From positions 66,264 through 130,263 of the forward strand of contig CALUXU010000005.1 in the NCBI GenBank assembly GCA_944324825.1: a DNA stretch of 64,000 nt, given 5' to 3'. The stretch comes from Candidatus Gastranaerophilales bacterium. Its GTDB lineage: Bacteria > Cyanobacteriota > Vampirovibrionia > Gastranaerophilales > Gastranaerophilaceae. The position numbers and the translations under genes are program-made. Shown here piece by piece: positions 2,430 to 18,582 of this stretch. Below the pieces are notes generated by a model that worked only from the letters and a program-made list of their open reading frames with translations, searched no databases and was not told the DNA's origin. The stretch's first letter is position 1. Every line of letters starts with the position of its first letter.

Positions 2430-2530
2430 TAAATTATTCTTATATAAAAAGTTCTCAAATAAACACTTGACTTCTGTCTCAAAACGAGTGATGAATGTGT
2501 TGCACAAAGCATTACAAGGATTTTGAGATA

Positions 2531-4306
2531 ATGGAAAACCAAGTTGAGACAATCAAATACACCCCTGAGAAGGCAAAACAAAATGCTCTTGCAAAACTTG
2601 ATTTAATCCGCAAATGGCAGGAGTTTCGCCGTAAAGCTGTCAACAAACTTCAAGCAGACTATGATTTTGTCAAACTGCATAATAGTTCAGATTCTTACCT
2701 TTTCAATGTTTTAGGTAAAATCTCTCGAGGAAGCTTGCATCGTTGGAAAGCAAGTTTAGACGGAACAGAGGATTACACAAGGCTAATTCCTAATTACAAG
2801 TACGTTTCTGTGAACGAATACAGAACATGTCTAACGGATGAAGAAATCAAAATATTTATGGGCTTGCTCCTGCACCCGAATAGAATTTGTATCGGCAAAG
2901 CAATAGCACTTACAAAATATAAGCTCAAAGAGCAAGGTCAAAGTTTTATCCCTGCGGATATTACGTTTAGACGCTACGCAAAATGGTTTAAGGACAATAA
3001 TTACGACAAATGGGTGCTTGCTCGAGACGGCGAAAAAGCACTTTCAGACAAAGTTGAACCTTATATTAAAAGGGACGCTAGCCTGCTTGATGTCGGGGAT
3101 ATTTTAGTTGCAGACGGGCATAAACTGGCGTTTCAAGTGATTAATCCCTTTACGGGCAAGCCTTGTCGAGCAACTTTGGTCGGATTTTTAGACTGGAAAT
3201 CAACAGCACTGGTCGGGTATGAAATTATGCTTGAAGAAAACACCCAATGTATTGCAAGTGCCCTAAGAAACGCAATAATAAACCTTGATATGATACCTAA
3301 AATTGTCTATCAAGATAACGGCAGAGCATTTAGAGCAAAATACTTCACAGATGATAAAGGATTTGGAGAATTAGGCTTTTACGGGCTCTATGCAAAACTC
3401 GGGATTGAAACGGTATTTGCAAGACCATATAATGCAAGGTCAAAGGTTATTGAGAGGTTCTTCAAAGAATTTCAAGAAGGATTTGAAAAACTAATGCCAA
3501 GTTATGTCGGCTCATCAATTATCAACAAACCTGCGTACTTGAAACGAAACGAAATTTTTCATAAAAACTTACACCAAGATTATATCCCAACTATAGAAGA
3601 AACAATCAAAATGATTGATATGTGGCTTAAGTTTAAGAACTCTCAGCCCTGCACAAATGCACCGAATATGACAATCGCAGAGGTTTTAGAAAATCGAAAT
3701 AAACAGAATATTGATAAAAGCTTGCTTGACGATTTGATGTTGGCAACTGAAGTCAAAACAATTCAGCGAAACGGCGTAAGGTTCTTAAATTGTGACTATT
3801 TTGACGAAAGATTATACGGGTTAAGAGGAAAAGTTTTAGTAAAATACAACCTGTTTGATTTAACTAATGTGAAAGTTTTTACCCCGAAAGGTGAATATTT
3901 ATGCACAGCAGAGCGAGTAACCGAAACTCACCCGATGGCAAAGATTTTAGGAACAGTTGAGGATCTAGAGGATTACAAACAAAAAATCCAAAAACAACAA
4001 AAACTTAAACGGAAAACGATAAATTCGGTTAAAAAATTATTAACTGATGATGAAATAAAATTTTTAGAATGTCATTCTGAATTTATTTCAGAATCTGCAA
4101 CACCAGAGACCCTGAAACAAGTTCAGGGTGGCAATAAGTTCAAGCCTCGTTCAAATGGTGTTCAAAAAATAAACAACGGAGAAAAGTCTCTCCCGATTTT
4201 CAAAAACAATTCAGAAAAATATGAATATTTGATAAAACATAACCCAAGCGACACTTGGATTGCAGAATTTAAACAAACAAAGGAGTATAAACTGTTATAT
4301 GAATAG
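2531..4306 (+). CDS. DDE (rve-type) transposase, MuA/TnsB/TniA-like
   Basis: Candidate DDE triad VADGH / YQDNGRAF / VIERFFKEF. N-terminal HTH region, and a C-terminal barrel like the Mu transposase C domain (NGVRFLNCDYF...VLVKYNLFDLTNVKVF). Start moved from 2495 to ATG 2531 (MENQVE...), which has AAGGA upstream. Confidence 0.8.
   Translation: MENQVETIKYTPEKAKQNALAKLDLIRKWQEFRRKAVNKLQADYDFVKLHNSSDSYLFNVLGKISRGSLHRWKASLDGTEDYTRLIPNYKYVSVNEYRTCLTDEEIKIFMGLLLHPNRICIGKAIALTKYKLKEQGQSFIPADITFRRYAKWFKDNNYDKWVLARDGEKALSDKVEPYIKRDASLLDVGDILVADGHKLAFQVINPFTGKPCRATLVGFLDWKSTALVGYEIMLEENTQCIASALRNAIINLDMIPKIVYQDNGRAFRAKYFTDDKGFGELGFYGLYAKLGIETVFARPYNARSKVIERFFKEFQEGFEKLMPSYVGSSIINKPAYLKRNEIFHKNLHQDYIPTIEETIKMIDMWLKFKNSQPCTNAPNMTIAEVLENRNKQNIDKSLLDDLMLATEVKTIQRNGVRFLNCDYFDERLYGLRGKVLVKYNLFDLTNVKVFTPKGEYLCTAERVTETHPMAKILGTVEDLEDYKQKIQKQQKLKRKTINSVKKLLTDDEIKFLECHSEFISESATPETLKQVQGGNKFKPRSNGVQKINNGEKSLPIFKNNSEKYEYLIKHNPSDTWIAEFKQTKEYKLLYE
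4071..4130 (+). repeat. Two-hairpin repeat module lying in frame inside the transposase 3' region
   Basis: GTCATTCTGAATTTATTTCAGAATC + TGCAACACCAGAGACCCTGAAACAAGTTCAGGGTG. The same two-hairpin module, with covarying stem 1, occurs in non-coding DNA at 61133-61216. Confidence 0.65.
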
Positions 4307-4374: not shown

Positions 4375-5055
4375 ATGAAAAAAATCTTTATAAAAACTCG
4401 AAATGTAAGGAATTTTATAGGTTTAGTTGAAGCCCTAAAAAGCAAACCCAAAAACATTCCTAAAATGGGGCTTATATATGGCGAGCCGGGGCTTGGAAAA
4501 TCACAAACGGCACTTTGGCTAGCCTGCAAATATGACGGGATTTATATTCGAGCCTCAAACCTTATGACAAGCAGGTGGCTTGTTGAAGAAATTGTTAGAG
4601 AAATGGACGAACTCCCTCGGTATTTAACCTCGGACAACTTTAATGTCGTGATTAGCAAACTTATTCAAAAGCCCAAAATTATTTTTGTAGATGAAATCGA
4701 CTACTTGATGAACAATTACAAAAGTGTCGAAACCCTAAGAGATATCCACGATAAAACCGATTGTCCGATAGTCTTTGTCGGAATGAGCTTGGCTCTTAGA
4801 AAACTTGAAAGATACAAGCACCTGTATGATAGATTTAGCGAGATTGTAAAGTTTGAAACCTTTGAAATAGAAGATTTGAGTCAAATTTTTAACCAACTCT
4901 CTGAAATACCGTTTACCCCAGATTCGATAGAATATATCCACAAAAAATACAATAGGTTCAGACAAATAGTACAGCTTATAAGCAAACTTGAAACTATTGC
5001 AAAAGAAAATGGTCTAACAGAAATTACATTTGAAATTATAAAGGAACTCGTATGA
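4375..5055 (+). CDS. AAA+ transposition ATPase, MuB/TniB/TnsC-like
   Basis: Walker A GEPGLGKSQ and Walker B IIFVDEID. It lies directly downstream of the DDE transposase, the classical A-B gene order. Confidence 0.75.
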   Translation: MKKIFIKTRNVRNFIGLVEALKSKPKNIPKMGLIYGEPGLGKSQTALWLACKYDGIYIRASNLMTSRWLVEEIVREMDELPRYLTSDNFNVVISKLIQKPKIIFVDEIDYLMNNYKSVETLRDIHDKTDCPIVFVGMSLALRKLERYKHLYDRFSEIVKFETFEIEDLSQIFNQLSEIPFTPDSIEYIHKKYNRFRQIVQLISKLETIAKENGLTEITFEIIKELV

Positions 5056-5612
5056 ACATTGAAAAATTAGCTAAGAGATTAAAAGAATTTACCCTTGATG
5101 ATATTGAATTAATAGCAGAATGCGATTGCAAAACAAAACTTGAACAGCTTTTGAACAGCAATAAAATACTTTTTGAAAACGGAATTTATAAATACAATGA
5201 GGAAACGAAAACAGATGAAAATTATGAAATATTCAGCCCGCTAAAGAATAAACACCTAAAAATTAGTATAGAAGATGCAAAAGAATATTTTATGAAAAAT
5301 TATGTCGAAAAATACTGCAAATTCGAGACTTATAGAAACTATAACGCGATTTTTAATTTTAATATTATACCGTTTATAAACTGCTATTACCTGCACGAAA
5401 TTGATATTGAGTCGATAAAAGAACTTTTTAAAGTCTGCGAATTAAGACGCCTGAAACCCCGCAGAATTAAAAATACAATGGCTCTTCTAAACCAGCTGAT
5501 AAAATATTTCCAACACCTTGGAGTGATTGATAGAAGTTGCGTCTATCAGGTTAAAAAAGTACAAGACAAAAACCATTTTGGAATAGAAAACTTAATTTTT
5601 GAGGGATTTTAA
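5052..5612 (+). CDS. Hypothetical protein; C-terminal half resembles a tyrosine-recombinase core-binding (SAM-like) domain
   Basis: Start overlaps the stop of the ATPase gene (ATGA). The pattern ETYRNYNAIFNFNIIPF...LHEIDIESIKELF...RRIKNTMALLNQLIKYFQHLGVIDRS looks like an integrase N-terminal domain without a catalytic domain. This assignment is tentative. Confidence 0.5.
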   Translation: MNIEKLAKRLKEFTLDDIELIAECDCKTKLEQLLNSNKILFENGIYKYNEETKTDENYEIFSPLKNKHLKISIEDAKEYFMKNYVEKYCKFETYRNYNAIFNFNIIPFINCYYLHEIDIESIKELFKVCELRRLKPRRIKNTMALLNQLIKYFQHLGVIDRSCVYQVKKVQDKNHFGIENLIFEGF

Positions 5613-6010
5613 TGAGTAAAATGAAATTATTTAAACAAGCAGAGCAAATGTATTTAAAAGGCTCAACCGTTTGTGAAATCTCTTTAGAACTTGGGATTGC
5701 CAAAAGAACTTTGTTTTACTGGAAAAAGCAATATGATTGGGATAAAAAGCGAAAAGAATCCATGTATGATAGAGCACAATTCAAAGACGATTTGCAAAAG
5801 TTTGCCAAAAAACTAATGGAAAAAATCGCAAACAGTAATAAAACTAATAATCAGATAAACCAAGCAGAATACTATTCCCTTGTAAATATTTTGAACTTTC
5901 TCCCTGAACTGAAAGAAAACAATACTCAAACAGAAACACCCCAAATAAAAACAGAACTTTCTCCTGACTTCATCCGCCAAATCGAGTGTGAAATTTTAGG
6001 TATAGAATAA
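5612..6010 (+). CDS. Small HTH protein (terminase-small/gp27-like or transposase-HTH-like)
   Basis: Translationally coupled to the upstream gene (TAATG). HTH-like STVCEISLELGIAKRTLFYWKKQYDWDKKR. The family assignment is a guess. Confidence 0.5.
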   Translation: MSKMKLFKQAEQMYLKGSTVCEISLELGIAKRTLFYWKKQYDWDKKRKESMYDRAQFKDDLQKFAKKLMEKIANSNKTNNQINQAEYYSLVNILNFLPELKENNTQTETPQIKTELSPDFIRQIECEILGIE

Positions 6011-6053: not shown

Positions 6054-6686
6054 ATGGAAGATAAGTTTTTACAATATATTCAATCAAGACCAAAATCCGC
6101 AAAGTCTGGTTCTAATTATGTTAGTGGAATAAATAGTATTTCTAAAAAATTCTTAGATCAAAATCTTTTTTCTATTACATCTCCTAAAATTGTTGAAAAA
6201 ATAATATTTGATTTAGAAAATAATGATAAATTCATGACCGAAAATTCAAAAGGGCATAATATGTACCTTCGTGCGATTAAGCATTATAAAAATTTTCTAT
6301 CTGAAAATCAAGATTTGAATAGAAATAAAATATCAAGTTTATCTGAAAAGCAAATTACAAATATGCCTTATTATGAAGGTAATACAATAGAAAGAACTAT
6401 TATACAAAAATCTAGAAATAGGAATATTGTTAAACAGGTCAAAGAAGGAGATAATTATACTTGCAAGGGATGTGGTTTTTATTTCTACAATAAAATTGTA
6501 GAGGTACATCATTTAATTCCTCTTTCTAATATGGATGGAGAAAAACAGATAAAAAAAGAGGACTTAATTACTCTTTGTCCAAATTGTCACGCAATAGCTC
6601 ATTTATTGTTAAATGAAGATGAAAAATACAAAAATCGTAAAATTTTAATTGATAAGTTGCAGGAAATTTATAAGTTAAATAAATAA
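6054..6686 (+). CDS. HNH endonuclease
   Basis: CKGCGFYF...VEVHHLIPLSNMDG...LITLCPNCHAIAH gives the CxxC...HH...CxxCH HNH/zinc motif. The N-terminal ~130 aa are of unknown function. Confidence 0.8.
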   Translation: MEDKFLQYIQSRPKSAKSGSNYVSGINSISKKFLDQNLFSITSPKIVEKIIFDLENNDKFMTENSKGHNMYLRAIKHYKNFLSENQDLNRNKISSLSEKQITNMPYYEGNTIERTIIQKSRNRNIVKQVKEGDNYTCKGCGFYFYNKIVEVHHLIPLSNMDGEKQIKKEDLITLCPNCHAIAHLLLNEDEKYKNRKILIDKLQEIYKLNK

Positions 6687-6788: not shown

Positions 6789-7682
6789 ATGGCAATACCT
6801 AAATATGATGAATTAATGATACCAGTTTTAGAAGTTTTATCCGATAAAAAAGAACATCGAATTACGGAAATTGTTGATATTTTAGCAAAGAAACTAAAAT
6901 TAACAAATGAAGAATTGGAGGAAAAAATTTCTAGTGGTAGTAATAAATTCGCAGGTAGAGTAGGTTGGGCTAGAACATATTTAAAAGCTGCTAAATTGAT
7001 AGATTCAACTAGAAGAGCCTATTTTGTTATTAATGAAAGAGGAGAAAAAGCCCTTCAAGATAAACCTAAAGATTTATTAAATTATCTAAAACAATATAAT
7101 GAATTTTTAGAATTTGTTAAACCTAACAAAGATGAAAAAAACTCTGATAAAAACATACAAGAAAGTAAAACTGATACTCCAGACGAAATGTTAGCACATG
7201 CTCAGGATATGTATAAAGAAAATCTACAAACAGAATTGCTAACAAGATTAAAACAAATTGACCCGGTAAGATTTGAACAAATAGTTCTTCAACTTATGGA
7301 AAAAATGAATTATGGTGTCGGTTCAATGACAAAAATGAGTCATGATGGTGGAGTAGACGGCATAATTGATGAAGATGAATTGGGATTAGAAAAAATCTAC
7401 CTGCAAGCTAAAAGATACTCAGACAATAAAGTTAATGAAAAAGAAATGCAAAATTTCGCAGGGGCTCTAGGCTGTTCTCCGGTAAGAAAAGGAGTATTTA
7501 TAACAACCAGCTTCTTTGATGAAAGAGCTAAAAAGAAAGCCGCATCTGTTCAAGGTAAAATTATACGATTAGTAGACGGTGAAGAATTAACAAAATTGAT
7601 GATTAGGCATAATTTAGGTGTACAAGTTAAAACTAAAATCGAAATCAAGAAGATTGATGAAGATTTCTTTAGTGAAGAATAA
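6789..7682 (+). CDS. mrr: Mrr-family (type IV, modification-dependent) restriction endonuclease
   Basis: N-terminal winged-helix region (IPKYDELMIPVLEVL...) followed by the Mrr catalytic signature HDGGVDGIIDEDELGLEKIYLQAKRY. Confidence 0.85.
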   Translation: MAIPKYDELMIPVLEVLSDKKEHRITEIVDILAKKLKLTNEELEEKISSGSNKFAGRVGWARTYLKAAKLIDSTRRAYFVINERGEKALQDKPKDLLNYLKQYNEFLEFVKPNKDEKNSDKNIQESKTDTPDEMLAHAQDMYKENLQTELLTRLKQIDPVRFEQIVLQLMEKMNYGVGSMTKMSHDGGVDGIIDEDELGLEKIYLQAKRYSDNKVNEKEMQNFAGALGCSPVRKGVFITTSFFDERAKKKAASVQGKIIRLVDGEELTKLMIRHNLGVQVKTKIEIKKIDEDFFSEE

Positions 7683-8145: not shown

Positions 8146-8328
8146 TTAATATACTTCGATATTATTAAGCTCTATATTGTATCTTTTTCCATACTTATCA
8201 ACGCAAGTCGCATAATCTATCTCTGCATCGGCGAACTTGTTTTTCCAAATACAAATCAGCAATCCGATTTCTTGTGTTTTTAAATTCAAAACCTTTGTGC
8301 CATAAAGTGCATAGTCTTTTTCTGTCAT
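8146..8328 (-). CDS. Hypothetical small protein (60 aa)
   Basis: ORF whose ATG overlaps the stop of the upstream 71-aa ORF (TAATG), giving a two-gene mini-operon. Confidence 0.4.
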   Translation of the reverse strand: MTEKDYALYGTKVLNLKTQEIGLLICIWKNKFADAEIDYATCVDKYGKRYNIELNNIEVY

Positions 8329-8543
8329 TATTCTTTCCTTTCAAACATCAAGTCTGAATAGATATCATCAGGCTTTTGTGGGGCTATTAAAAACTCTTTC
8401 ATAAATACAAACCTTTCTCCGCAAGTGTTTTCACAAATTACAGTGTCGAAATTGTAGAAGCAAATTACTTTGTAATACTCATTATCAGAGCTCTTAAAAC
8501 CTTTAATCTTTTTAAGCTTGTATTTTTTGCCTAATTCAATCAT
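8328..8543 (-). CDS. Hypothetical small protein (71 aa)
   Basis: ORF with GAGG upstream (AAGAGGTAACAATG), translationally coupled to 8146..8328. Confidence 0.45.
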   Translation of the reverse strand: MIELGKKYKLKKIKGFKSSDNEYYKVICFYNFDTVICENTCGERFVFMKEFLIAPQKPDDIYSDLMFERKE

Positions 8544-8682: not shown

Positions 8683-8907
8683 TTAAAAATTCTTATTGTC
8701 AGGATAATTTATAAAATAAGCGTTTACAGTATCAGTATCTCGCCTTAAATTCTCAACTAGTGGAGTAAGATTATACAACTCTTCAATTTCTTGTTGAGTC
8801 CTACAAAAATAATCAATCACAGTAGCTGTGTTATAAATCCGCTCAGCTAATTTTTCTAACTTCTTAAAATCTTTTTGTTTAATTCGATATTTCTTATTTT
8901 TACTCAT
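8683..8907 (-). CDS. Hypothetical 74-aa protein downstream of the RT
   Basis: Start moved to the ATG at 8907, preceded by AGGAGG (TTAGGAGGTCGTATG). It is on the same strand as the RT, 92 nt downstream. Confidence 0.55.
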   Translation of the reverse strand: MSKNKKYRIKQKDFKKLEKLAERIYNTATVIDYFCRTQQEIEELYNLTPLVENLRRDTDTVNAYFINYPDNKNF

Positions 8908-8999
8908 ACGACCTCCTAACACAACACAATAGCGTGAAAGTCGTAAAACACACTGAAAATTTTACATAACAACACATAAATTTGTTAATACAATTTAAA

Positions 9000-10688
9000 T
9001 TATTTTTTACTTACAAGTTCATTGTATGTTGCTAATAATTCAGAATCTGCCTGCTTTATCAAATTATCTAGTCTTTTTTTGTGATTATGTATTTGGTGTT
9101 TAAGAACAGCGGTGTCAAAAACTTTGTCAAAAGTTCTCAAAACATATGATATGAAATTACGTTTACCTAAATATGTATATCTTTCATATAATAGTCGTCG
9201 ATATAATTTTTTATGTTTATCTTGAAGAACAATTCCTTTTTTATGCATATTCTCTAGCTTTTTTTTTGCATTTAATTTCATTGCCGAAACTGCTCTTTTA
9301 GATTTTCTTAAGTAACGAGCAAGACTAGCTTCTCTAATTCTTACTTGTTCGCCATTAAAATAAAATCCAAGATATTGAAGCGGATTAGTCATAATTTTTT
9401 TAATATTAGTAAAGTCATAACATTGACTTTTTGAGTAATCGTCCCACGCTTCAATAGGGTGTATTGACAAAGAATTGCCTCTTTCTAAAATATATTCTTG
9501 AATTTTTTCAATAACATACTTTTTTACAGTCTCATCGTGCGGACAAATAAACATTATATCATCACAATAGCGTCGATATATTCCATTAACTTCTTCTGCC
9601 AAATTTTTCATATTTATATCAAACGGTATCATGTAAATATTAGAAAGAAGTGCTGACATAGAGGTCCCTTGCGGAATTCCATATGGAAATTTATCATTTA
9701 ATCCAGGATTTTTATGAAATTTTTTATGCTCAGTATTTTTATATGTCTCTTTATACCATTCCTTAAATTTCCTAAACTGTTTAGCATTATAAAAAAGAAT
9801 TTTAGGTATTTGTTTATATATTTTTTTATTACATTTACAACAAGCATCTAAAGTACATTTGTGTTTGTTTATATAGTAACAAATTTCTTTCAAATCAATA
9901 AAACAATACTTTGTCAATGATCTATAAATATTTAAGTGGTCAGTAGGTAACTTGTCAGTATTTAGTACTTTTGTCCATTCTTGATATAATTTTTCGTGGT
10001 CTATATAATCATAAAAACTATGAATATCAAAGGCTAATGCATAACAATTATTTTTACGTTTTTTTATATGTTCAAAAATTTCCCTCGCCATCGTGCAATT
10101 ATTGGGGCTAATTTCACTATCTTTTATGTATATTTTAGGAAGTGTACGATAAGCAAGTATTTCCGGACCTAAATTGAGCTCTTTTAATTTTTGTTCATAT
10201 TTTTCATATAATAATTTTGCATAATAAGAATAAATATACCCATCAATATGAGCAGCATACCTTATCGGACGCTTTTTTATAATACCCTTTTCTTTTAAAT
10301 TCTTTAAAATTTTATTACAACTTTCGAGTTCGGGACCAGATAATTCTTTTGATTTTTTTTCATAATATTTGATTTTGTTTATTATATTTGCTCTTCGTTC
10401 TTTTATATCGAAAGCTATAAAAGGATAAAATGCGTGTGTTGCAATTTTATCTGGAGAACTTAAGTAATCTCTTAAAGATTCTATATGTTGTTTAATTTTT
10501 TTTTGAGCATCAGGAGATATCTTATAAGTTGATTTTGTTTTAGAGTTCACTTTTGTTATATAACGAACAAGAGTAAAAGGTCTATCAAAGTGAGCATAGC
10601 TTTTTTGTACAAAAGATGGAATTTTACTACATATTTGATTATTAATTGTATTTTTTAGCCTATCATATTCTTTTTGTTTCTTTTTCAT
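9000..10688 (-). CDS. Reverse transcriptase, orphan Abi/DRT-like (unclassified)
   Basis: RT motifs occur in order: KKRPIRYAAHIDGYIY, ALAFDIHSFYDYIDH (A), YGIPQGTSMSALLSNIYM (B), RYCDDIMFIC (C; YCDD at 9558-9569) and LQYLGFYF. RBS AAGAGGA lies upstream of the ATG. Confidence 0.9.
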   Translation of the reverse strand: MKKKQKEYDRLKNTINNQICSKIPSFVQKSYAHFDRPFTLVRYITKVNSKTKSTYKISPDAQKKIKQHIESLRDYLSSPDKIATHAFYPFIAFDIKERRANIINKIKYYEKKSKELSGPELESCNKILKNLKEKGIIKKRPIRYAAHIDGYIYSYYAKLLYEKYEQKLKELNLGPEILAYRTLPKIYIKDSEISPNNCTMAREIFEHIKKRKNNCYALAFDIHSFYDYIDHEKLYQEWTKVLNTDKLPTDHLNIYRSLTKYCFIDLKEICYYINKHKCTLDACCKCNKKIYKQIPKILFYNAKQFRKFKEWYKETYKNTEHKKFHKNPGLNDKFPYGIPQGTSMSALLSNIYMIPFDINMKNLAEEVNGIYRRYCDDIMFICPHDETVKKYVIEKIQEYILERGNSLSIHPIEAWDDYSKSQCYDFTNIKKIMTNPLQYLGFYFNGEQVRIREASLARYLRKSKRAVSAMKLNAKKKLENMHKKGIVLQDKHKKLYRRLLYERYTYLGKRNFISYVLRTFDKVFDTAVLKHQIHNHKKRLDNLIKQADSELLATYNELVSKK

Positions 10689-10708
10689 AAATCCTCTTAT
10701 TTAGCACG

Positions 10709-10746
10709 GAAGACACTCAGATTCGTTCATCTATGTGAGTGTCTTC
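10709..10746 (-). promoter_or_regulatory. Perfect 11-bp-stem hairpin in the RT 5' leader
   Basis: GAAGACACTCA (10709-10719) pairs with TGAGTGTCTTC (10736-10746) around a 16-nt loop. It ends 20 nt before the RT start codon and has no U tract, so it is not a terminator. Confidence 0.6.
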
Positions 10747-10845
10747 ACAAACTTAAGCCCTAAAAGAGCTAATTTCTTTGACTATTCAATTTGGTTTACC
10801 TGCTTTTAAACCTCATATCCCTGTCAGCAACGAGTTTATACACTA

Positions 10846-10854
10846 TGTTATAAT
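10846..10854 (+). promoter_or_regulatory. Extended -10 promoter element (TGTTATAAT) for the small plus-strand ORF
   Basis: TG-T-TATAAT at 10846-10854, about 16 nt upstream of AGGAGG (10870-10875). Confidence 0.55.
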
Positions 10855-10884
10855 GATAAATATAACCTTAGGAGGAATATTCTT

Positions 10885-11037
10885 ATGATGTTAATGCAAA
10901 CTCTAATTCAGAACCTGCTGGTACATCACCAGTCAATCCTTAACCTTCTTGTAAAGATAATGCTCTGCATTATACTTTACATAGTTTATTTACTCCCCAC
11001 TTGCCTAATTAGTAATACTAACCAACAAATGGCATGA
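10885..11037 (+). CDS. Unannotated 50-aa hydrophobic peptide (type I toxin-like or small membrane effector)
   Basis: My translation: MMLMQTLIQNLLVHHQSILNLLVKIMLCIILYIVYLLPTCLISNTNQQMA*. AGGAGG sits 9 nt before the ATG, downstream of the extended -10. It is below the 60-aa cutoff of the ORF track. Confidence 0.55.
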   Translation: MMLMQTLIQNLLVHHQSILNLLVKIMLCIILYIVYLLPTCLISNTNQQMA

Positions 11038-11077
11038 TAATAATACTACAAACTTAGTGAATTTAGAAAGAATTTAA

Positions 11078-12949
11078 CTATTTTTTAATATTTGAATCTG
11101 GAGTTAACCCTTTTCTTCTCATAAAGAGTATTCTATCCAACAAATCACTATCGTAAAATCTTTCTTTACTTTTACTCCACATTTTGAAATCAGCTATCAG
11201 TTCAGAATTTGAACAAGTTAAATTGTTATTCAAACGATTTTTCCAAACTGCATATAACGTTGCTATAGACTCACAAAAATCTGAATTTTTCCCCTTAAAA
11301 AGATCCATTAATTTATCTATTTTTGATAGACTTCCTGCAAACACATCATTGTACAATGTTTTGATTTCATGACAATTTTCTAAAGGAAGATATTTGGTAA
11401 TTTCAACAGAACCGTTCGTTACTTTCTGAACATCAAACCATTTTTTTATTTTTAAAATATCTTCAACCTCATATCTTGATTTTGCATCATATGGTCCTGC
11501 TGCTTCTTTTTTATATTTCCCATTTAGAGTGATACCTAGATGAGTTTCACAAAGATATAGAATTTTTTCTAATTTTACAGCGCCAAAATACTTTTCTTCA
11601 TGCATTTCATTAATAATCTTTGCACTCAAGACAGCTCTTTTATAATTTAAGTCAATAATTTCATTTGAATTCTCTTTTTGAGTAAAATAGTTTTGCAGTA
11701 TAGATTGAAATAACTCAGAAGATGATTTCTGTGCAATACTGTTCTTAATTTCTAATTCTTCACATATTTGCATTAATTTATCCACATTAGTGACAATTCT
11801 CTTTTGTTCTGCTAATGGAGGAAGAGGAAGTAAATATGCTATAATTTTTTCTCTGGAAATATTTGGTTGAGCACCCCCGTCACCTCTTTTTCTTAGGTTA
11901 TCCCTTTCAGAAAGCAAATAATAAAATAAAAATTTAGTTTCTATTTCTTGGAAAGCAATACAGGCACAGCAAGCTTGGTTTGTTGTCGCTGGAATTGTTA
12001 AAATCCCAAGTTTTCCAATAGTTGCCCCATACATAGCAATAAGCAGTGAACCTATTGGTTTTATCTTTACAGATGTTTGTTCTAGTGCTAATTCAGTTAT
12101 TTTTTCAGGTATCTCTGTAATAAAACTGTCATTTAAATCTCCTGTTTTTAGCCAAGGAATTGTTCCATTAAAATAATAGTCTGTTCTTGCTCTATTGGGT
12201 GTTGAACCAGCACCCCAATCACCTATATCGCCAAGTCTTACCCATTGCCAGCCTTGCGGAAGGTCGTATGGGATTTCGTCCTGGGTGATTGAGGGTAGAG
12301 ATTTTTCTTTTTTGATTTTGCCGTCTTTTATTAGTTGTTCTTTTTCAGCTTTTATGCGTTTTAAAAGTTCTGATGCAGGTTCATCTTGAGGATTTTGCTC
12401 GACAAGTTTTCCTTGGACTGCGTATTGCAAAATGGATGTTCTTAAATCTGTAATATAATTATTCTGTTCTTGATATTTTTGGTTTATTTTTTTTAACTCA
12501 ATTTGTGATTTTTTAATAGTATTTACCACTTTGACTTGTTGCTCAATTTTTGGAATCTCTATTGTAATTGTTTTTATAGAATTAATTGTTAGTGATACAT
12601 TAGCAGCACCTTTCATTAAAGGAACAATTTTGCTATCTTTGTAAAAAGTTAAATAATAATACAAATATTCTGCATTTAAGAGATTTTCGTCATTAGGAAT
12701 TACAGCGGCTAATATATTTCCAAGAGCGAATTTCCCCTCTTGATAATGCAAACGCTTTAAACTTGCATGTCCATGTCCTGTCGAAGATACCAAAGGTATA
12801 CATACTGCTTTAGCATCAAATTGAAACTCGTTACTAGATAATCTGTTTTCTGCAGTAACAACTAATGGATATTCTCCTGGTATAGCTTTTTTTATGCCAG
12901 TAGTCCCTTTTATAATAGTACAAATTTCGCCAAGTTTATATTGTTGCAT
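11078..12949 (-). CDS. hsdS: Type I R-M specificity subunit HsdS with an extra ~190-aa C-terminal domain
   Basis: Two target-recognition domains (YKLGEICTIIKGTTG...; WQWVRLGDIGDWGAGSTP...), central repeat LLKRIKAEKEQLIKDGKIKK and distal repeat LPPLAEQKRIVTNVDKLMQICEELE. About 190 further residues follow that normal HsdS proteins lack. Confidence 0.85.
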   Translation of the reverse strand: MQQYKLGEICTIIKGTTGIKKAIPGEYPLVVTAENRLSSNEFQFDAKAVCIPLVSSTGHGHASLKRLHYQEGKFALGNILAAVIPNDENLLNAEYLYYYLTFYKDSKIVPLMKGAANVSLTINSIKTITIEIPKIEQQVKVVNTIKKSQIELKKINQKYQEQNNYITDLRTSILQYAVQGKLVEQNPQDEPASELLKRIKAEKEQLIKDGKIKKEKSLPSITQDEIPYDLPQGWQWVRLGDIGDWGAGSTPNRARTDYYFNGTIPWLKTGDLNDSFITEIPEKITELALEQTSVKIKPIGSLLIAMYGATIGKLGILTIPATTNQACCACIAFQEIETKFLFYYLLSERDNLRKRGDGGAQPNISREKIIAYLLPLPPLAEQKRIVTNVDKLMQICEELEIKNSIAQKSSSELFQSILQNYFTQKENSNEIIDLNYKRAVLSAKIINEMHEEKYFGAVKLEKILYLCETHLGITLNGKYKKEAAGPYDAKSRYEVEDILKIKKWFDVQKVTNGSVEITKYLPLENCHEIKTLYNDVFAGSLSKIDKLMDLFKGKNSDFCESIATLYAVWKNRLNNNLTCSNSELIADFKMWSKSKERFYDSDLLDRILFMRRKGLTPDSNIKK

Positions 12950-12950
12950 A

Positions 12951-14378
12951 TTATCCTTTTAATTGTTCTTCAAGACGTGAAAGAATAGCATTAATCTGTT
13001 TATTATTATCTCTTATTCTTGCTATTAATTCTTGGGGAGTTTTCATAATTTTAGTTTCTGATTTATTTGGATTTTTAAAATCAAGATTATAATTATTATT
13101 TATAACATCTTCTATCGATACTCGCCAAGCAAGATCATTCTCAATTTTGTTTTTCCACCAACTTCTTATTGAATTAAATTCTTCATTTTTAATAGGATTT
13201 GTTTTTGAGTAACTTTTTAATCCATCAGGGAGTTTGTGTTCATAAAACCATATAAAATTTGTAGGTTCTCCTTTTTTAAAAAACAATAAATTTGTGCCTA
13301 CTGTTGCATAAGGTTTAAAAACAGAGTTTGGTAATCTTATAATAACTTCTAAATTACAAGTTTCAAGAAGTTCTTGTCTTATTCTTGTTTTTACACCTTC
13401 TCCAAAAAGAGAACCGTCTGGTAATACAATACCTGCACGTCCTTGTGGTTTTAACATTTTCATTATGTATACTAAAAATAAGTCAGCTGTTTCACGAGTT
13501 CTAAAACTTGCCGGAAAATTATTTTCAATACCATCTTCTTCAATACCTCCAAACGGAGGGTTTGTAACAATACAATCTACTCTATCAGCAGGTGAAATAT
13601 TATTAATCGGTTTTGATAGAGTATTATCACGTCTGATATTTATCGGAGTATCAATTCCGTGCAAAATCATGTTAGTTGTGCATAATTGATGAGGAAGCGG
13701 TTTCTTTTCTATTCCAAAGATGGAATTATTTAAAATTTCACCCTCTTTTGTTGTATCTGCTTGCTTTTTCAAGTGTTCAATCGCACAGGCTAAAAATCCG
13801 CCCGTACCACAAGCCGGGTCAAGAACTTTTTCTCCAAGTTGAGGATTAACCATATCAACAATAAATTGGGTTACTGCTCTTGGAGTGTAATATTCTCCTG
13901 CATTGCCTGCTGATTGAAGACTTTGCAAAAGCTGTTCATAAATATCATTAAAAAGATGTCTATCTTCGCTTGAATTAAAGTCAATTTCATTAATCTTATT
14001 TATAACCTGTCTGAGCAGTGTGCCTGATTTCATGTAGTTGTAAGTATCTTGAAAAATATTTCTTATAATCAATGCTTGTTGGTTAGAATCATTTTCCAGA
14101 TTTTGTAAATACGGAAATAAATCATTATTTATAAAGTCAATGAGTTCATCTCCTGTCATACCCTCATCATCTTGAGCCCAGTTTTGCCAGCGGTATTTTT
14201 CTTCAAGCGGAGATTTGTAATCATCTTTCATAACCTCTGCTTCATCTTCTTTATCGGCAAAGATTTTCAAAAACAGCATCCAAACGATCTGCGACAGTCT
14301 TTGTGCGTCGCCGTCAACGCCTGTATCCTTCCTCATTATGTCCTGTATAGCTTTTATTACACTTGATATATTTGGCAT
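12951..14378 (-). CDS. hsdM: Type I R-M DNA methyltransferase subunit HsdM
   Basis: AdoMet motif LDPACGTGGFL and catalytic VTNPPFGG, with an HsdM N-terminal helical domain. Its stop is 1 nt from the hsdS start. Confidence 0.92.
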   Translation of the reverse strand: MPNISSVIKAIQDIMRKDTGVDGDAQRLSQIVWMLFLKIFADKEDEAEVMKDDYKSPLEEKYRWQNWAQDDEGMTGDELIDFINNDLFPYLQNLENDSNQQALIIRNIFQDTYNYMKSGTLLRQVINKINEIDFNSSEDRHLFNDIYEQLLQSLQSAGNAGEYYTPRAVTQFIVDMVNPQLGEKVLDPACGTGGFLACAIEHLKKQADTTKEGEILNNSIFGIEKKPLPHQLCTTNMILHGIDTPINIRRDNTLSKPINNISPADRVDCIVTNPPFGGIEEDGIENNFPASFRTRETADLFLVYIMKMLKPQGRAGIVLPDGSLFGEGVKTRIRQELLETCNLEVIIRLPNSVFKPYATVGTNLLFFKKGEPTNFIWFYEHKLPDGLKSYSKTNPIKNEEFNSIRSWWKNKIENDLAWRVSIEDVINNNYNLDFKNPNKSETKIMKTPQELIARIRDNNKQINAILSRLEEQLKG

Positions 14379-14531
14379 TTAGTTATCCTCTAATTTAAAA
14401 GTTTATTGTTTATTTCTTTTAACTCTTCTATTTGTTTTAATAATAAATTTCTTGTTTTTTCTAAATCAGCTTTTCTTTCATATATTTGTTGTAATAACCC
14501 ATCGTTAGTTCCATATAAAATATTTTCTTTT

Positions 14532-14993
14532 TTATTTTTTTTCAATAAAAAATTTTATTTTTAACTCTACGTAAGTAAAGATTTTTATTCTATATTCCTG
14601 AATATTTTTATTTATTTCATTTAATATCTCATTTTGTTTTGGAGCATCAATTAACCAATTTTTCAGGCTTAATATGCAATTACCAAAACCTTCGGCTATT
14701 TCCATATCAATATAATTTGCTTGTTTCTCAATTAATTCACTATCGTTTAGATTCTCTTGATATGTTTGTGTTGTATGTTTAGAAAATACAGTTGATTCTA
14801 ATTCATAATATTGTAAATCTTGTATATATGCATTTAATGTTTCTAATAAAGTAACAAGTTTTCTTCTTTTTTGCTCATTTTTCCAAGTATTTAATGCCTT
14901 CCAAGCAGCAACAGCCATAAAACCAGTAGCCACCATCATTAAAAAAGTTGAGATTGCTGTTATAGCAGACCAAATAATATTCCATTCCATCAA
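14532..14993 (-). CDS. Hypothetical N-terminal-TM protein between hsdR and hsdM (probably frameshifted at an A8 tract)
   Basis: Start overlaps the hsdR stop (ATGA). TM helix IIWSAITAISTFLMMVATGFMAVAAW. The ORF stops right after an A8 run (plus-strand T8 at 14535-14542). The -1 frame stays open to 14390 and reads as a coiled coil. Confidence 0.55.
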   Translation of the reverse strand: MMEWNIIWSAITAISTFLMMVATGFMAVAAWKALNTWKNEQKRRKLVTLLETLNAYIQDLQYYELESTVFSKHTTQTYQENLNDSELIEKQANYIDMEIAEGFGNCILSLKNWLIDAPKQNEILNEINKNIQEYRIKIFTYVELKIKFFIEKK

Positions 14994-17386
14994 GCCACCT
15001 CATTATCATTAAAAAGCTCTTTTTCCAGTTCTTTTATAGCTTCTTCGTACTTAGCTTTTCCGCCAAATTCTTTGATTATCTCCATTGGTGTACCGATTTC
15101 ATCAAACGGTTGGAATTTTAAAATTTCTCTGTTTTCAATCTCTTCAATACCGTCATCTGCAAATTTATCAATCAATGCATTAAGAACTTTTCTTGCTTTC
15201 TCTGAATATTTGCCAAAATAGTTTCTTTTCTTAATTTTTTCTGCTCTTTCTTTGCGTGAGAGCGGAGGCATATCAAAGGTTATATGGCATATCAGGTCAA
15301 AAACACTCAGGTCTTTGCCTGTTTTTTGTTTAACTTCTTCTCTCAATTCATCGAGCATTACACCTTGTTCTATAAGTTCATCAATAATCGCAGATTTTTT
15401 ATCAGCTTCTGACCATTTTTTGATAAAGTCATCCATTGTTGCAAATTGTGCTTTAAGATTCTTTTTTGTATAATCAATCAGGCTTTCTGTTATCAATTTG
15501 CCGTCATTACCATAATATTGAACTCTTTCACCGACTTGAACAACCTCAATCCCATTTACATAAAATTTTCCGGTAGGTTTTTCTATATTCGTAATATCAA
15601 TGTCCGGAGGAATTTCTACAATCGTTTCATCAACGGAGAGGTTATCAATAATATTCTCGACCTCTTCTTTAGACTGTTCTTCTTTAGGCATTTCTTCATT
15701 TTCTTGAACTTCTTTAACCTGAACTGGCTCGCCGTCAAATTCTTTATCTTCAAATAATCTAGTAACCCCGCGGAAATCAAGAATTGTAAAGTACCATTTA
15801 TTATAATCCGGTCTTAAACGTGTTCCACGACCGATAATTTGTTTAAATTCTGTCATTGAATTGATGTTGCTATCTATTGCTATAAGTTTGCAGGTCTTAG
15901 CATCAACTCCTGTTGTCATTAGCTTTGAAGTTGTTGCAATTACAGGATATGTAATTTCCGGATCGATAAAGTTATCAAGTTCCTTTTTTCCCTCATCATT
16001 ATCGCCGGTAATTTGCATTACATATTTTGAATTTTCTGCAACCAAATCAGAGTTTTCATTTACCAATGCTTGACGCATTCTGTTAGCATGGTCAATGTCT
16101 GTACAGAAAACAATTGTTTTGTCATACCTATTATTATTTTTCAGGTATTGAGTTATTCTTTTTGCAACAAGTTCCGTACGTTCATCAACAACAATCTTTT
16201 TATCAAAATCTTTTACGTTGAATTCTTCATCTGGAACTTCATTACCATACTTATCAATCGTACCTTGTGGAAGTTTTAATCCGTCAAGGTCAATATTTAT
16301 TATTGGTCTTACAACTTTATAAGGGGCTAGAAAACCGTCTTCTATACCTTGTTTTAGAGAATACGTATAAATAGGTTCGCCAAAATATTCTATATTTGAA
16401 ACTTCTTTTGTTTCTTTTGGTGTTGCAGTCAAGCCAAGCTGTGTTGCTGATGAAAAATAGTCTAAGATTTCTCGCCAGCTTGAATCATCTTTTGCACTCC
16501 CTCTATGACATTCATCAATGACAATTAGATCAAAGAAATTTCTTGAAAACTCTTTATACGCATCTTTGTCTTCATTATTTCCAGTAATCCCCTGATATAA
16601 TGCCAGATAGATTTCATAAGATTTATCTATCTGGCGTTTTGTAATTTTTGTCATTTTATCACCGAAAGGTGCAAAATCTTGGCTTTTTGTTTGGTCAATT
16701 AAAATATTTCTATCAGCTAAAAACAAGATACGTTTTTTCTTTTTAGCCTTCCATAAACGCCAGATAATCTGAAATGCCGTATAAGTTTTACCTGTGCCTG
16801 TTGCCATTACAAGCAGAACTCTGTCCTGCCCTTTTGCTATTGCTTCAACGGCTCTGTTAATCGCAATTCTTTGATAATATCGAGGCTCTTTATTTGTTGC
16901 CAAATCCTTGTGGTAGGCTTGCGTGTATATTTTTTCAGTTTCAGTATCTTCCAGTTGTTTATATTTCTTGTATTTTTCCCATAACTCCTGTGGTGAGGGG
17001 AATTTATCCAAAGGTAATTCTATTTCTTTTTTACCTAAATCGACTGTTTTGTCATGAAAAATAAAAGCATCCCCATTAGATGAAAATACAAAAGGTATAT
17101 CCAGCATTTGAGCATATTCTAAAGCCTGCTGAATCCCCGCTCCGACACAGTGATTGTTGTCTTTTGCTTCCACAATCGCAAGAGGAATATTGTTTTTATA
17201 ATACAAGATGTAATCAGCCCGTTTACTTTTGCCACGAGAAACAAGCTTTCCTCTAACTATTACCTTGCCAGCAGTGAAAGAAACTTCTTCTCTAATCTGC
17301 GAGTCTTTGTCCCAACCTGCTTTTATTATTGCTGGTGTTATAAATTTTGTGCAAATATCACGTTCAGATAAATCTTTTTTATTCAT
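14990..17386 (-). CDS. hsdR: Type I restriction enzyme R subunit HsdR
   Basis: N-terminal nuclease region (ADYILYY...IVEAKD), helicase motif I MATGTGKT, motif II VIDECHR, and a C-terminal helical domain as in EcoEI-type R subunits. Confidence 0.92.
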   Translation of the reverse strand: MNKKDLSERDICTKFITPAIIKAGWDKDSQIREEVSFTAGKVIVRGKLVSRGKSKRADYILYYKNNIPLAIVEAKDNNHCVGAGIQQALEYAQMLDIPFVFSSNGDAFIFHDKTVDLGKKEIELPLDKFPSPQELWEKYKKYKQLEDTETEKIYTQAYHKDLATNKEPRYYQRIAINRAVEAIAKGQDRVLLVMATGTGKTYTAFQIIWRLWKAKKKKRILFLADRNILIDQTKSQDFAPFGDKMTKITKRQIDKSYEIYLALYQGITGNNEDKDAYKEFSRNFFDLIVIDECHRGSAKDDSSWREILDYFSSATQLGLTATPKETKEVSNIEYFGEPIYTYSLKQGIEDGFLAPYKVVRPIINIDLDGLKLPQGTIDKYGNEVPDEEFNVKDFDKKIVVDERTELVAKRITQYLKNNNRYDKTIVFCTDIDHANRMRQALVNENSDLVAENSKYVMQITGDNDEGKKELDNFIDPEITYPVIATTSKLMTTGVDAKTCKLIAIDSNINSMTEFKQIIGRGTRLRPDYNKWYFTILDFRGVTRLFEDKEFDGEPVQVKEVQENEEMPKEEQSKEEVENIIDNLSVDETIVEIPPDIDITNIEKPTGKFYVNGIEVVQVGERVQYYGNDGKLITESLIDYTKKNLKAQFATMDDFIKKWSEADKKSAIIDELIEQGVMLDELREEVKQKTGKDLSVFDLICHITFDMPPLSRKERAEKIKKRNYFGKYSEKARKVLNALIDKFADDGIEEIENREILKFQPFDEIGTPMEIIKEFGGKAKYEEAIKELEKELFNDNEVA

Positions 17387-17464: not shown

Positions 17465-18004
17465 TTACAAATAAAAATTCCTATAAACTTCATCGATATC
17501 TTCTTGTTCGATGCCGATGTAGCGAAGTGTTACTGATGGCGAAGAGTGGTTAAAGATTTTTTGCAGGAGTACTATATCATTATATTTTTTATAATGATGA
17601 TACCCGAATGTCTTTCTCAATGTATGTGTTCCGATTCTTTCCTTCACCCCAACAGCTTGTGCTGCCTTATTCAAAATTCTATACGCCTGTGCCCTATCCA
17701 GTCTGCAATGTTTTTGTGTATAAAATAGCGGCTGCTCGGGCGGTTTATCTTTTACAAATTCTTCTATCTCCCCCTTCAAAAACCTATTGAGCGGAAATTT
17801 CTTATACTTATTCGTCTTTTTCTCTCTAATTTCAATATAATCTCGGCCCTTTACATCCCCAACATCAAGCGATAATATATCAGATATTCTAAGTCCTGTA
17901 TTTATCCCAAAACTAAAAAGCAGAGCATCTCTTGGCTTTTTTGCCAAATATTTTTTAATCTTTTGAATATCTTCTATCTTTTTTATAGGTTGTACTACAT
18001 TCAT
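17465..18004 (-). CDS. Small tyrosine recombinase (catalytic domain only, 179 aa)
   Basis: GLRISDIL (Arg I), HTLRKTFG (H-x-x-R), NHSSPSVTLRYIG (His/Tyr nucleophile region). It has no N-terminal core-binding domain. Confidence 0.85.
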   Translation of the reverse strand: MNVVQPIKKIEDIQKIKKYLAKKPRDALLFSFGINTGLRISDILSLDVGDVKGRDYIEIREKKTNKYKKFPLNRFLKGEIEEFVKDKPPEQPLFYTQKHCRLDRAQAYRILNKAAQAVGVKERIGTHTLRKTFGYHHYKKYNDIVLLQKIFNHSSPSVTLRYIGIEQEDIDEVYRNFYL

Positions 18005-18303: not shown

Positions 18304-18582
18304 ATGAATGGCTTTTTCTTTAATCCTAAAACTCCTAATGATATAGCGCATGAATTGGTTGAGAAAATTAAGCAGCATCGAAAAAAGCTTAAAATTTCTC
18401 AGGCTCAACTTGCTTCAAAATCGGGTGTCAGCCTTGGTTCTATCAAAAGGTTTGAGTCCAAGTATGAAATTTCTTTGAATTCTTTTATAAAAATTCTAAT
18501 AGCTCTTAATTTAGAGCAGGATTTAGAAAATTTATTCACGCAAAAAAGCTATAACTCAATTGAGGAAGTTATAAATGGATAA
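18304..18582 (+). CDS. hipB: XRE-family HTH antitoxin (HipB-like)
   Basis: HTH KISQAQLASKSGVSLGSIKRFE. It overlaps the start of the HipA-like gene by 8 nt. Confidence 0.8.
   Translation: MNGFFFNPKTPNDIAHELVEKIKQHRKKLKISQAQLASKSGVSLGSIKRFESKYEISLNSFIKILIALNLEQDLENLFTQKSYNSIEEVING

Follow-up and report, generated by a model that had tools for sequence, protein, structure and literature searches.

DRT2 systems pair a reverse transcriptase (RT) with an upstream noncoding RNA (ncRNA) of ~280 nt, the central template of which is copied into concatemers, with the gene neo lying antisense to the ncRNA (Tang et al. 2024, PMC11100668; Wilkinson et al. 2024, PMC12039810). For Kpn Neo, the frame is kept while the peptide itself is poorly conserved (Wilkinson et al. 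2024, PMC12039810). Here, we compare these systems with an RT gene, and the spacer upstream of it, from a Candidatus Gastranaerophilales bacterium (GenBank assembly GCA_944324825.1, contig CALUXU010000005.1, positions 66,264 to 130,263 of the forward strand). The whole stretch of 64,000 nt is referred to as the window, and positions are counted from its first letter. With a probability that we put at roughly 70%, the RT and the ncRNA predicted upstream of it make up a DRT2 system of a divergent, long subclade that works by a rolling-circle, neo-type mechanism; that the locus belongs functionally with DRT2 is close to certain. The evidence that carries this reading is the family of the RT with its intact catalytic motifs, the conservation and covariation of the upstream RNA, an open antisense frame that holds a promoter element in phase, insertions and deletions (indels) that preserve this frame and do so within the template, and a shared UAACAU motif.

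KpnDRT2 (structures 9c0i and 9c0j) is the system to which the locus compares most directly. Both have a single RT gene with an upstream ncRNA on the same strand, and in both the RT ends in a long helical thumb, an elongation that is common to all Drt2 proteins (Wilkinson et al. 2024, PMC12039810). Both also have UAACAU at the 3' boundary of the template and an antisense unit in which a TATAAT read as Tyr-Asn, a ribosome-binding site (RBS), an ATG, and a hydrophobic frame follow one another, with a total length divisible by 3. The two differ in that the RTs share ~28 to 33% identity, the window RT being ~135 residues longer through four insertions, including a Cys4-type cluster. They differ further in the unit, predicted here at 177 to 189 nt (59 to 63 codons) compared with 111 to 129 nt, and in their hosts, which are low-GC gut lineages (Gastranaerophilales and others) here and Proteobacteria for KpnDRT2.

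Similarly, the RT-12 RNA of Rfam (RF03016), which represents the canonical Drt2 scaffold, lies directly upstream of the RT, has UAACAU at its start, and closes with a long terminal hairpin before the RT start, as does the RNA predicted here; the GCGGC/GCCGC pseudoknot of RT-12, however, has no verified counterpart in the window. DRT9, DRT10, and DRT3b, all of Class 2 UG, likewise combine an RT with an adjacent ncRNA and act through DNA synthesis. They are set apart by their products (homopolymers or short repeats in tandem), by a mode of synthesis that is protein-primed or telomerase-like, and by their reliance on other effectors, and the window RT obtains far lower scores with their profiles.

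Family and architecture of the reverse transcriptase

The RT gene occupies positions 9000 to 10688 of the minus strand and encodes 562 residues. Among PADLOC profiles, Drt2 matches best (PDLC03757, E = 1.1e-112, 375.7 bits; PDLC02173, 307 bits), followed at 80 bits by RT_UG17 and RT_UG39 and at 53 bits by Drt3a; profiles of Abi and Class 1 RTs are not among the leading matches. A sequence search of the PDB returned the KpnDRT2 entries 9c0i, 9lje, and 9lv7 as sole matches (E ~ 3e-59). An AlphaFold2 (AF2) model built on 25 relatives reached a predicted local distance difference test (pLDDT) score of 87.8 and a predicted template modeling (pTM) score of 0.83. When this model was searched with Foldseek, 9c0i chain A came first (E = 2e-29, template modeling [TM] score of 0.77 on the target) and the G2L4 RT second (E = 1e-9), with the DRT9 structures (E ~ 1e-8) and Abi-P2 (7r08; E = 1e-6, TM score of 0.30) as remote matches. 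A preliminary description of the locus, made from the letters of the sequence, had regarded the RT as an orphan that could be assigned to no named group. Profile and structure searches now place it in DRT2/UG2, and the suggestion in the same description of a DRT-type defense RT, in a defense island next to a type I restriction-modification (R-M) operon, is borne out by the PADLOC Drt2 match and by hsdS, hsdM, and hsdR genes that are real.

Two other assignments of the RT can be weighed against these results. A single RT beside an R-M operon in a defense island, with extra segments in the protein and a small open reading frame (ORF) next to it, would also fit an orphan Abi-type enzyme (similar to AbiK, Abi-P2, or AbiA) that makes untemplated, protein-primed DNA, uses the 74-residue product of the adjacent ORF as its partner, and needs no RNA template. 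This is very improbable, as the Drt2 profiles score ~300 bits above any Class 1 or Abi profile, the structural match to Abi-P2 is remote next to that with DRT2, the conservation and structure of the upstream region resemble those in Class 2 UG systems, and the small ORF is missing from most related loci. A retron RT or a group II intron RT/maturase has practically no probability left. The RT does show weak domain similarity to both profile sets, as expected for any bacterial RT, but it obtains 51.7 bits with the retron St85 profile (cutoff, 235 bits) and 48.6 bits with the group II RT/maturase profile TIGR04416 (cutoff, 300 bits). A search of the window for Rfam families found neither a retron msr/msd RNA nor an intron RNA, and a domain search of the RT found no maturase or endonuclease module, in agreement with the preliminary description, which had set both classes aside.

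The RT is a divergent, longer member of Drt2/UG2 and belongs to a distinct long subclade with four lineage-specific insertions. A protein search recovered this subclade as ~60 clusters of 510 to 610 residues with 35 to 98% identity to the query, mostly from gut and rumen metagenomes, including metagenome-assembled genomes of Gastranaerophilales, Enterousia, Bacilli, and Desulfovibrionaceae. The next step in similarity is canonical Drt2, with 416 to 450 residues and ~33% identity, and annotated phage and plasmid records yielded canonical Drt2 only (~30% identity). Five relatives of ~900 residues (P0063 to P0067; 35 to 40% identity) have an N-terminal extension of ~290 residues and an insertion in the thumb, without a Pfam match or a Cys cluster.

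The RT motifs stand in canonical order, with KKRPIRYAAHIDGYIY at residues 138 to 153, ALAFDIHSFYDYIDH at residues 217 to 231 (motif A), YGIPQGTSMSALLSNIYM at residues 336 to 353 (motif B), the catalytic YCDD at residues 374 to 377 (positions 9558 to 9569, minus strand), and LQYLGFYF at residues 437 to 444. YCDD is intact, and Y374, D376, and D377 are invariant among 25 long-clade RTs. When 16 long-clade RTs were aligned with 8 canonical Drt2 proteins in MAFFT, the additions of the long clade mapped to residues 108 to 137, a helical insertion (positions 10278 to 10367, minus strand; predicted helices H100-115 and H119-134), and to residues ~40 to 74 (~30 residues after HFDRP), ~186 to 195 (~8 residues), and 311 to 334, with small extra pieces also in the palm and at the C terminus. 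The N-terminal extension and the helical tail that had been noted before are both present; the tail is the long thumb of Drt2, and the extension is in part the conserved N-terminal region of Drt2 with lineage-specific insertions.

Between motifs A and B, the alignment gives a spacing of ~119 residues compared with ~75 to 80 in KpnDRT2, which amounts to ~1.5-fold and not to the rough doubling described earlier. The long-clade-specific expansion in this region includes residues 311 to 334 and carries a Cys cluster, C270-x7-C278-x4-C283-C284-x-C286 (positions 9831 to 9881, minus strand). What had been taken for an atypical one-off is semiconserved across the subclade: the pattern C...C...CxxC recurs in most long-clade members, was lost in P0019 and P0059, and does not occur in canonical Drt2. 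It is possibly a small metal-binding knuckle. Structure prediction, which the preliminary description had proposed for this insert, succeeded for the RT fold as a whole but is unreliable at the Cys loop itself (pLDDT 49 to 69), which makes metal binding a reasonable conjecture rather than a finding.

The upstream RNA and its antisense frame

The spacer between the RT gene and hsdS measures 389 bp (positions 10689 to 11077), and the ncRNA is predicted to span approximately positions 10689 to 11098 of the minus strand on the basis of its fold, its conserved blocks, and its similarity to a related locus, L161. The spacer folds more stably than shuffled sequences (z = -4.6; none of 100 shuffles was equally stable), and its alignment with the corresponding regions of loci in which RT identity is only 50 to 68% shows long invariant blocks. 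The earlier view that the spacer deserves attention as a source of ncRNA and complementary DNA (cDNA) was right. UAACAU (positions 10845 to 10850, minus strand), the equivalent of ACA-2/CAU-2, is conserved more strongly than any other element of the long-clade alignment and nearly invariant in both alignments A2 and A3; it marks the 3' boundary of the predicted template and also opens the RT-12 consensus.

The segment between the template and the RT start (positions 10689 to 10844, minus strand) is the 3' scaffold, presumably the part bound by the RT, and contains conserved hairpins with compensatory changes. The terminal hairpin (positions 10709 to 10746, minus strand) has a perfect 11-bp stem, in which GAAGACACTCA (10709 to 10719) pairs with TGAGTGTCTTC (10736 to 10746), and a 16-nt loop; it ends 20 nt before the RT ATG and is followed by a conserved GUGCU and then by the RBS of the RT gene. 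RNAalifold retains this hairpin in 8 to 9 loci, and pairs in which both sides have changed are GC to AU at the base (three sequences), UA to CG, and CG to UA. The hairpin had been noticed before as a stand-alone feature; its presence stands, and it proves to be a conserved, covarying part of an RNA scaffold. A hairpin in the 5' part of the template is also kept with compensatory changes, and a small hairpin flanked by the conserved blocks GUCAAAGAAA and AGUUUG differs in sequence in nearly every lineage.

Further RNA elements were considered and set aside. An SL2-like basal stem of CACUA (11059 to 11055) with UAGUG (10845 to 10841) appears in the minimum-energy fold of the window but is not conserved in L162-type loci, and an RT-12-like pseudoknot of UCGUU with AACGA in the hairpin loop has no support from covariation. 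A promoter search for the ncRNA gave weak, AT-rich matches only. All loci have the RNA motif CAAGAAGG once in the template (window positions 10943 to 10950, plus strand CCTTCTTG), and L002, L162, L165, L168, L163, and L003 have it a second time in the scaffold; in the window, L001, and L161, the second copy has been deleted together with 11 to 15 nt around it. The two copies in L002 amount to an in-frame direct repeat of 12 nt, at an offset of 153 nt.

The antisense strand of the predicted template carries an open frame, which is the main point of a DRT2 locus. The preliminary description had flagged the spacer and missed this frame. A stop-free frame of 225 nt (positions 10810 to 11034, plus strand) holds an extended -10 element, an RBS, a start codon, and an ORF, while the other five frames are rich in stops. 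The extended -10 element, TGTTATAAT (TGnTATAAT; positions 10846 to 10854, plus strand), is read in frame as Cys-Tyr-Asn; AGGAGG follows at 10870 to 10875 (plus strand), 9 nt before the ATG at 10885, from which a hydrophobic, genomic single-unit ORF of 50 residues runs to a TGA at 11035 to 11037 (ORF, 10885 to 11037, plus strand). The RBS and the start codon downstream of the -10 element are conserved in relatives. TATAAT, read as Tyr-Asn, is in phase with a downstream ATG ORF in all 11 long-clade loci compared, at distances between the -10 element and the ATG of 36, 36, 36, 36, 33, 36, 30, 33, 24, 30, and 48 nt, and it is in phase in L086 as well.

The predicted template of 189 nt (positions 10848 to 11036, minus strand) corresponds to a plus-strand unit of 63 codons, CYNDKYNLRRNILMMLMQTLIQNLLVHHQSILNLLVKIMLCIILYIVYLLPTCLISNTNQQMA, if the junction is placed as set out below. 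Given that junction, a trimer of the unit has no stops in one plus-strand frame and 15 to 27 stops in each other frame. Between the same anchors, homologous units measure 189, 186, 189, 189, 186, 189, and 177 nt, all of them divisible by 3. Indels follow the same rule within the unit and not beyond it: across six alignable loci, those inside the unit are of 3, 3, 6, and 6 nt (4 of 4 multiples of three), compared with 1, 2, 5, 7, 1, 11, 10, and 1 nt in the scaffold (0 of 8), a difference for which a hand calculation of Fisher's exact test gives ~0.002. As a control, the same procedure was applied to canonical loci, where it recovers the known 117-nt neo unit, with TATAAT likewise read as Tyr-Asn; in L040 and L038, this unit is delimited by the UAACAU motif and an ACA 117 nt upstream.

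The junction is predicted from a short repeat at the two ends of the template. The CAU at 10847 to 10845 recurs at 11036 to 11034 (CAU-1, the predicted 5' end of the template, minus strand), which on the plus strand gives an ATG at 10845 and another at 11034, offset by 189 nt, the latter overlapping the genomic TGA. At the 3' boundary, ACA-2 lies inside UAACAU (10848 to 10846); the other end reads UCAUG, which leaves CAU, displaced by 1 nt, as the trinucleotide in common. In L165, UAACAU stands at both ends, and the genome already reads ...QQMAC*; in L003, the same CAU rule gives 177 nt. In the window, the head-to-tail junction would read ...AAATGGCATG followed directly by TTATAATGAT..., or, written at another length, ...CAAATGGCATG followed by TTATAATGATAAA.... 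We put the chance that 189 nt and this CAU are exactly right at about even. In L002, the 12-nt repeat AACCTTCTTGTA (offset 153, in frame) was also tried as a junction and was rejected, as it fails in L163 and L003 and is not in the window. In L010 (1316 to 1756), repeats of 63 nt stand in tandem ahead of a long-clade RT; considered as a genomic neo array, they turned out to belong to a sense-strand secreted repeat protein.

Proposed mechanism and alternatives

By homology with KpnDRT2, the locus most likely defends the cell in the following way. The RT would attach to the ncRNA at its 3' scaffold (10689 to 10844) and reverse-transcribe the template from 10848 to 11036. At the CAU of 11036 to 11034, the nascent cDNA end, ...GGCATG, would re-pair with the CAU of UAACAU (10847 to 10845) and continue with TTATAAT, and repeated rounds of such rolling-circle reverse transcription would yield a head-to-tail concatemer of the 189-nt unit. 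Following second-strand synthesis, the double-stranded unit would carry the extended -10 element, AGGAGG, and ATG. As the template jump would turn the genomic TGA into TGT, translation could continue through successive 63-codon repeats. The product would be a hydrophobic, helical, repetitive Neo-type protein, presumably toxic, that arrests the growth of the infected cell, with phage as the presumed trigger. An AF2 model of three Neo units is helical but of low confidence (pLDDT 62) and was not used as evidence.

Several observations weigh against this mechanism, and a number of them are also differences from KpnDRT2. No ACA-1 was found at the template 5' end, where CAU (in UCAUG) takes its place. 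Neither in genomic DNA nor across the junction as predicted was a -35 element found; the best candidates across the latter match 2 to 3 of 6 positions, and the extended -10 element is already complete in genomic DNA, with the -10 box 1 nt from the junction compared with 11 to 12 nt in KpnDRT2. The promoter-reconstitution gate of KpnDRT2 is therefore missing; in the control loci L040 and L038, by comparison, TTGACA stands exactly 17 nt from TATAAT across the junction. A further difference is that the genomic stop overlaps the junction here. A search of the ncRNA found no clear, stable 5' handle hairpin. The junction repeat is 3 nt long in the window, 2 nt in L168, and 1 to 2 nt in L161, and short in-frame repeats such as 3-mers are common by chance. 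The window also contains an alternative in-frame junction, ATAC, which would give a 177-nt unit and is not conserved in L162, as well as direct repeats at offsets of 181 nt (the 7-mer ATGATAA) and 187 nt (ATAAT); both of the latter were rejected as junctions, being out of frame and accompanied by stops.

Other points of this kind concern the families and the frame. RT-12 has no match in the window even at E values up to 10 and none in L002 and L003 at the gathering score, compared with 85 bits in L038 and L040; no other Rfam family matches the ncRNA region. The RT obtains 340 bits with NF041746, the NCBIfam equivalog for Drt2, which is under the cutoff of 390 bits because of the insertions (474 protein residues align with 399 profile positions). 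The same cutoff misses the long clade generally and leaves an annotation gap, in which these proteins are labeled as hypothetical (the relative P0025 is a "hypothetical protein" in NCBI). Stop-free length by itself is marginal (p ~ 0.04 to 0.06 with dinucleotide shuffles). Codon-position and synonymous/nonsynonymous tests gave no coding-type signature, as substitutions in the unit are not biased toward the third position and are mostly nonsynonymous. Conservation thus applies to the frame, which stays open, in phase, and hydrophobic, and not to the peptide sequence, and a claim of purifying selection on the Neo peptide was dropped. The unit of L161 contains an in-frame TAA. Finally, a two-unit Neo query matched none of 5.8 billion proteins, and the predicted junction DNA, ACAAATGGCATGTTATAAT, was not found in viral contigs.

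Several of the same features would be expected if the locus were a DRT2-family ribonucleoprotein with a different output. The 50-residue antisense ORF (10885 to 11037) could be a conventional small toxin gene that the RT and ncRNA control otherwise, for example through antisense pairing or single-copy cDNA amplification, or the RT could make a different DNA product. A small toxin gene would account for a promoter (TGTTATAAT), RBS, ATG, and TGA that are all complete in the genome with no -35 element reconstituted at the junction, for a junction homology of 2 to 3 nt only, and for a peptide that shows no purifying selection. Tang et al. describe Neo as "more challenging" to annotate where DRT2 clades are divergent, and they raise the possibility of other mechanisms (PMC11100668). 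A conventional gene, however, gives no reason for the -10 box and the 5' untranslated region to be open and in phase, as they are in 11 of 11 loci, with an in-frame TATAAT in canonical loci too. Nor does it explain why the multiple-of-three rule for indels spans the whole unit, including the promoter and RBS part, why all unit lengths from anchor to anchor are divisible by 3, or why the genome of L165 passes the predicted junction codon (TGT) before its stop. We regard this alternative as unlikely.

It is also conceivable, if improbable, that the locus is a decayed or inactive DRT2 relic in which the RT gene is intact and the RNA and neo part no longer works in this genome. The lineage of the window (L001, L081, L082, and L161) lost the second CAAGAAGG copy and 11 to 15 nt of scaffold that all other relatives kept, L161, the nearest distinct relative, has the TAA in its unit, and ACA-1 is not conserved. 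Decay is hard to reconcile with a full-length RT ORF that has all its catalytic motifs, a unit frame that stays open over 189 nt in the window, hairpins that are intact, and a scaffold version kept at 95 to 98% identity in several independent metagenomes (P0001 to P0003, L001, L081, and L082).

If the mechanism is indeed of the neo type, it would be gated by double-strand synthesis, copy number, and erasure of the stop codon instead of by the assembly of a promoter. A further-reaching proposal, which we put forward tentatively and consider doubtful as a whole, is that the long subclade constitutes a distinct DRT2 variant in which the toxin is gated mainly by erasure of the stop (TGA to TGT at the CAU junction). 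The genome would then encode a complete, harmless one-unit ORF, and only RT-made concatemers would give an endless protein of 63-residue repeats. In such a variant, the enlarged RT, with its Cys4-type insertion in the finger region, could replace the missing 5' handle and ACA-1 in defining the jump. The module could share a transcript, and perhaps also a functional link, with the type I R-M operon, whose hsdS precedes it in many lineages.

Module, genomic neighborhood, and significance

The extent of the module can be read from L161, a locus with other genomic surroundings. Its similarity to the window runs only from ~75 nt 5' of AUGCC (~11098, inside the end of hsdS) to ~95 nt 3' of the RT stop. 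The module therefore measures ~2.2 kb (~8908 to 11098), with the ORF for 74 residues outside it. L161 itself (1120 to 1500), the nearest distinct relative, with an RT 83% identical to that of the window, lies between two-component regulator genes; its neo frame has a CAA-to-TAA change four codons before the end of the unit, and a remnant of ~25 nt of the hsdS 3' end is left. It may be a decaying copy.

The small ORF (8683 to 8907, minus strand; 74 residues from the ATG and 79 from an upstream GTG) is preceded by AGGAGG and has no family matches; the similarity between the window and L161 stops at its start codon. Searches with tblastn found it only in L001, L082, L081 (2 kb from the RT), and L168 and not beside the RT in L002, L161, L162, L003, and others. 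From this distribution, and from its position outside the shared module, it is a neighbor and not part of the core system. The other elements of the preliminary description, namely the 562-residue ORF with its RT motifs, the Cys cluster, this small ORF with its AGGAGG, the 389-bp spacer, and the hairpin, were all found where it had placed them. Two small ORFs follow on the minus strand (71 residues, 8328 to 8543; 60 residues, 8146 to 8328), which are conserved only in the near-identical L001 and L082 and have no family match. No other protein gene is consistently linked to the RT across related loci.

A natural chimera illustrates the modularity within the locus. In L002 (3614 to 5686), the 5' flank and template are 93 to 95% identical to the window, while the scaffold and RT are 80 to 86% identical to L162; the breakpoint lies near the border between template and scaffold, and the window and L162 are 66 to 78% identical throughout. 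The template thus acts like a cargo that can be swapped, as would follow if the scaffold is what the RT recognizes.

Directly upstream, on the strand of the ncRNA and RT, lies a complete type I R-M operon (11078 to 17386, minus strand) with hsdS at 11078 to 12949, hsdM at 12951 to 14378, an ORF for 153 residues at 14532 to 14993, and hsdR at 14990 to 17386. The order hsdS-ncRNA-RT recurs in L162, L163, L165, and L168, and it is found in at least five lineages. The module occurs without hsdS in L161, L003, L166, and L167, and elsewhere it adjoins genes for TIR, RNase T, Mu transposase, or two-component proteins. HsdS next to the ncRNA is unusually long, at 623 residues, and the HsdS proteins beside related RTs have 623 to 709 residues. 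Its C-terminal ~200 residues (11078 to 11680) have no Pfam match at E values up to 1, and one PADLOC Specificity_I profile covers them. The 153-residue ORF (14532 to 14993, minus strand) has a weak, subthreshold Maf1-like match and no PADLOC match.

Defense genes embedded in type I R-M loci are known, an example being prrC in EcoprrI. Like EcoprrI, the present locus combines a type I R-M operon with a second defense module that lies inside it or directly behind it and has the same orientation. As a difference, the DRT2 module also occurs apart from hsdS. The first 18 kb of the window is a defense island on a Mu-like mobile element. It comprises a tRNA-Ile (712 to 787), a PDC-S31/DUF2971 gene (1386 to 2429), a Mu-type transposase (2495 to 4306), a TniB-like ATPase (4375 to 5055), a terminase_5-like helix-turn-helix protein (5612 to 6010), an HNH protein (6054 to 6686), an Mrr type IV restriction enzyme (6789 to 7682), and, beyond the RT and R-M genes, a truncated integrase (17465 to 18004), followed by a HipA kinase (18575 to 19678).

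DRT2 is among the most unusual mechanisms of gene expression, in that a gene exists only after reverse transcription, and it has been characterized only in the KpnDRT2-like clade. The locus and its relatives provide a concrete neo prediction for a divergent clade in gut Gastranaerophilales and other low-GC lineages. New in this prediction are a unit ~1.5 times as long as those known, a different junction motif, a promoter that is not split, a stop on the junction, and an enlarged RT with an insertion that may bind metal. If the prediction is true, an open, in-phase unit and the UAACAU boundary would be what is essential to DRT2, and promoter reconstitution, ACA-1, and the RT-12 scaffold would be dispensable.

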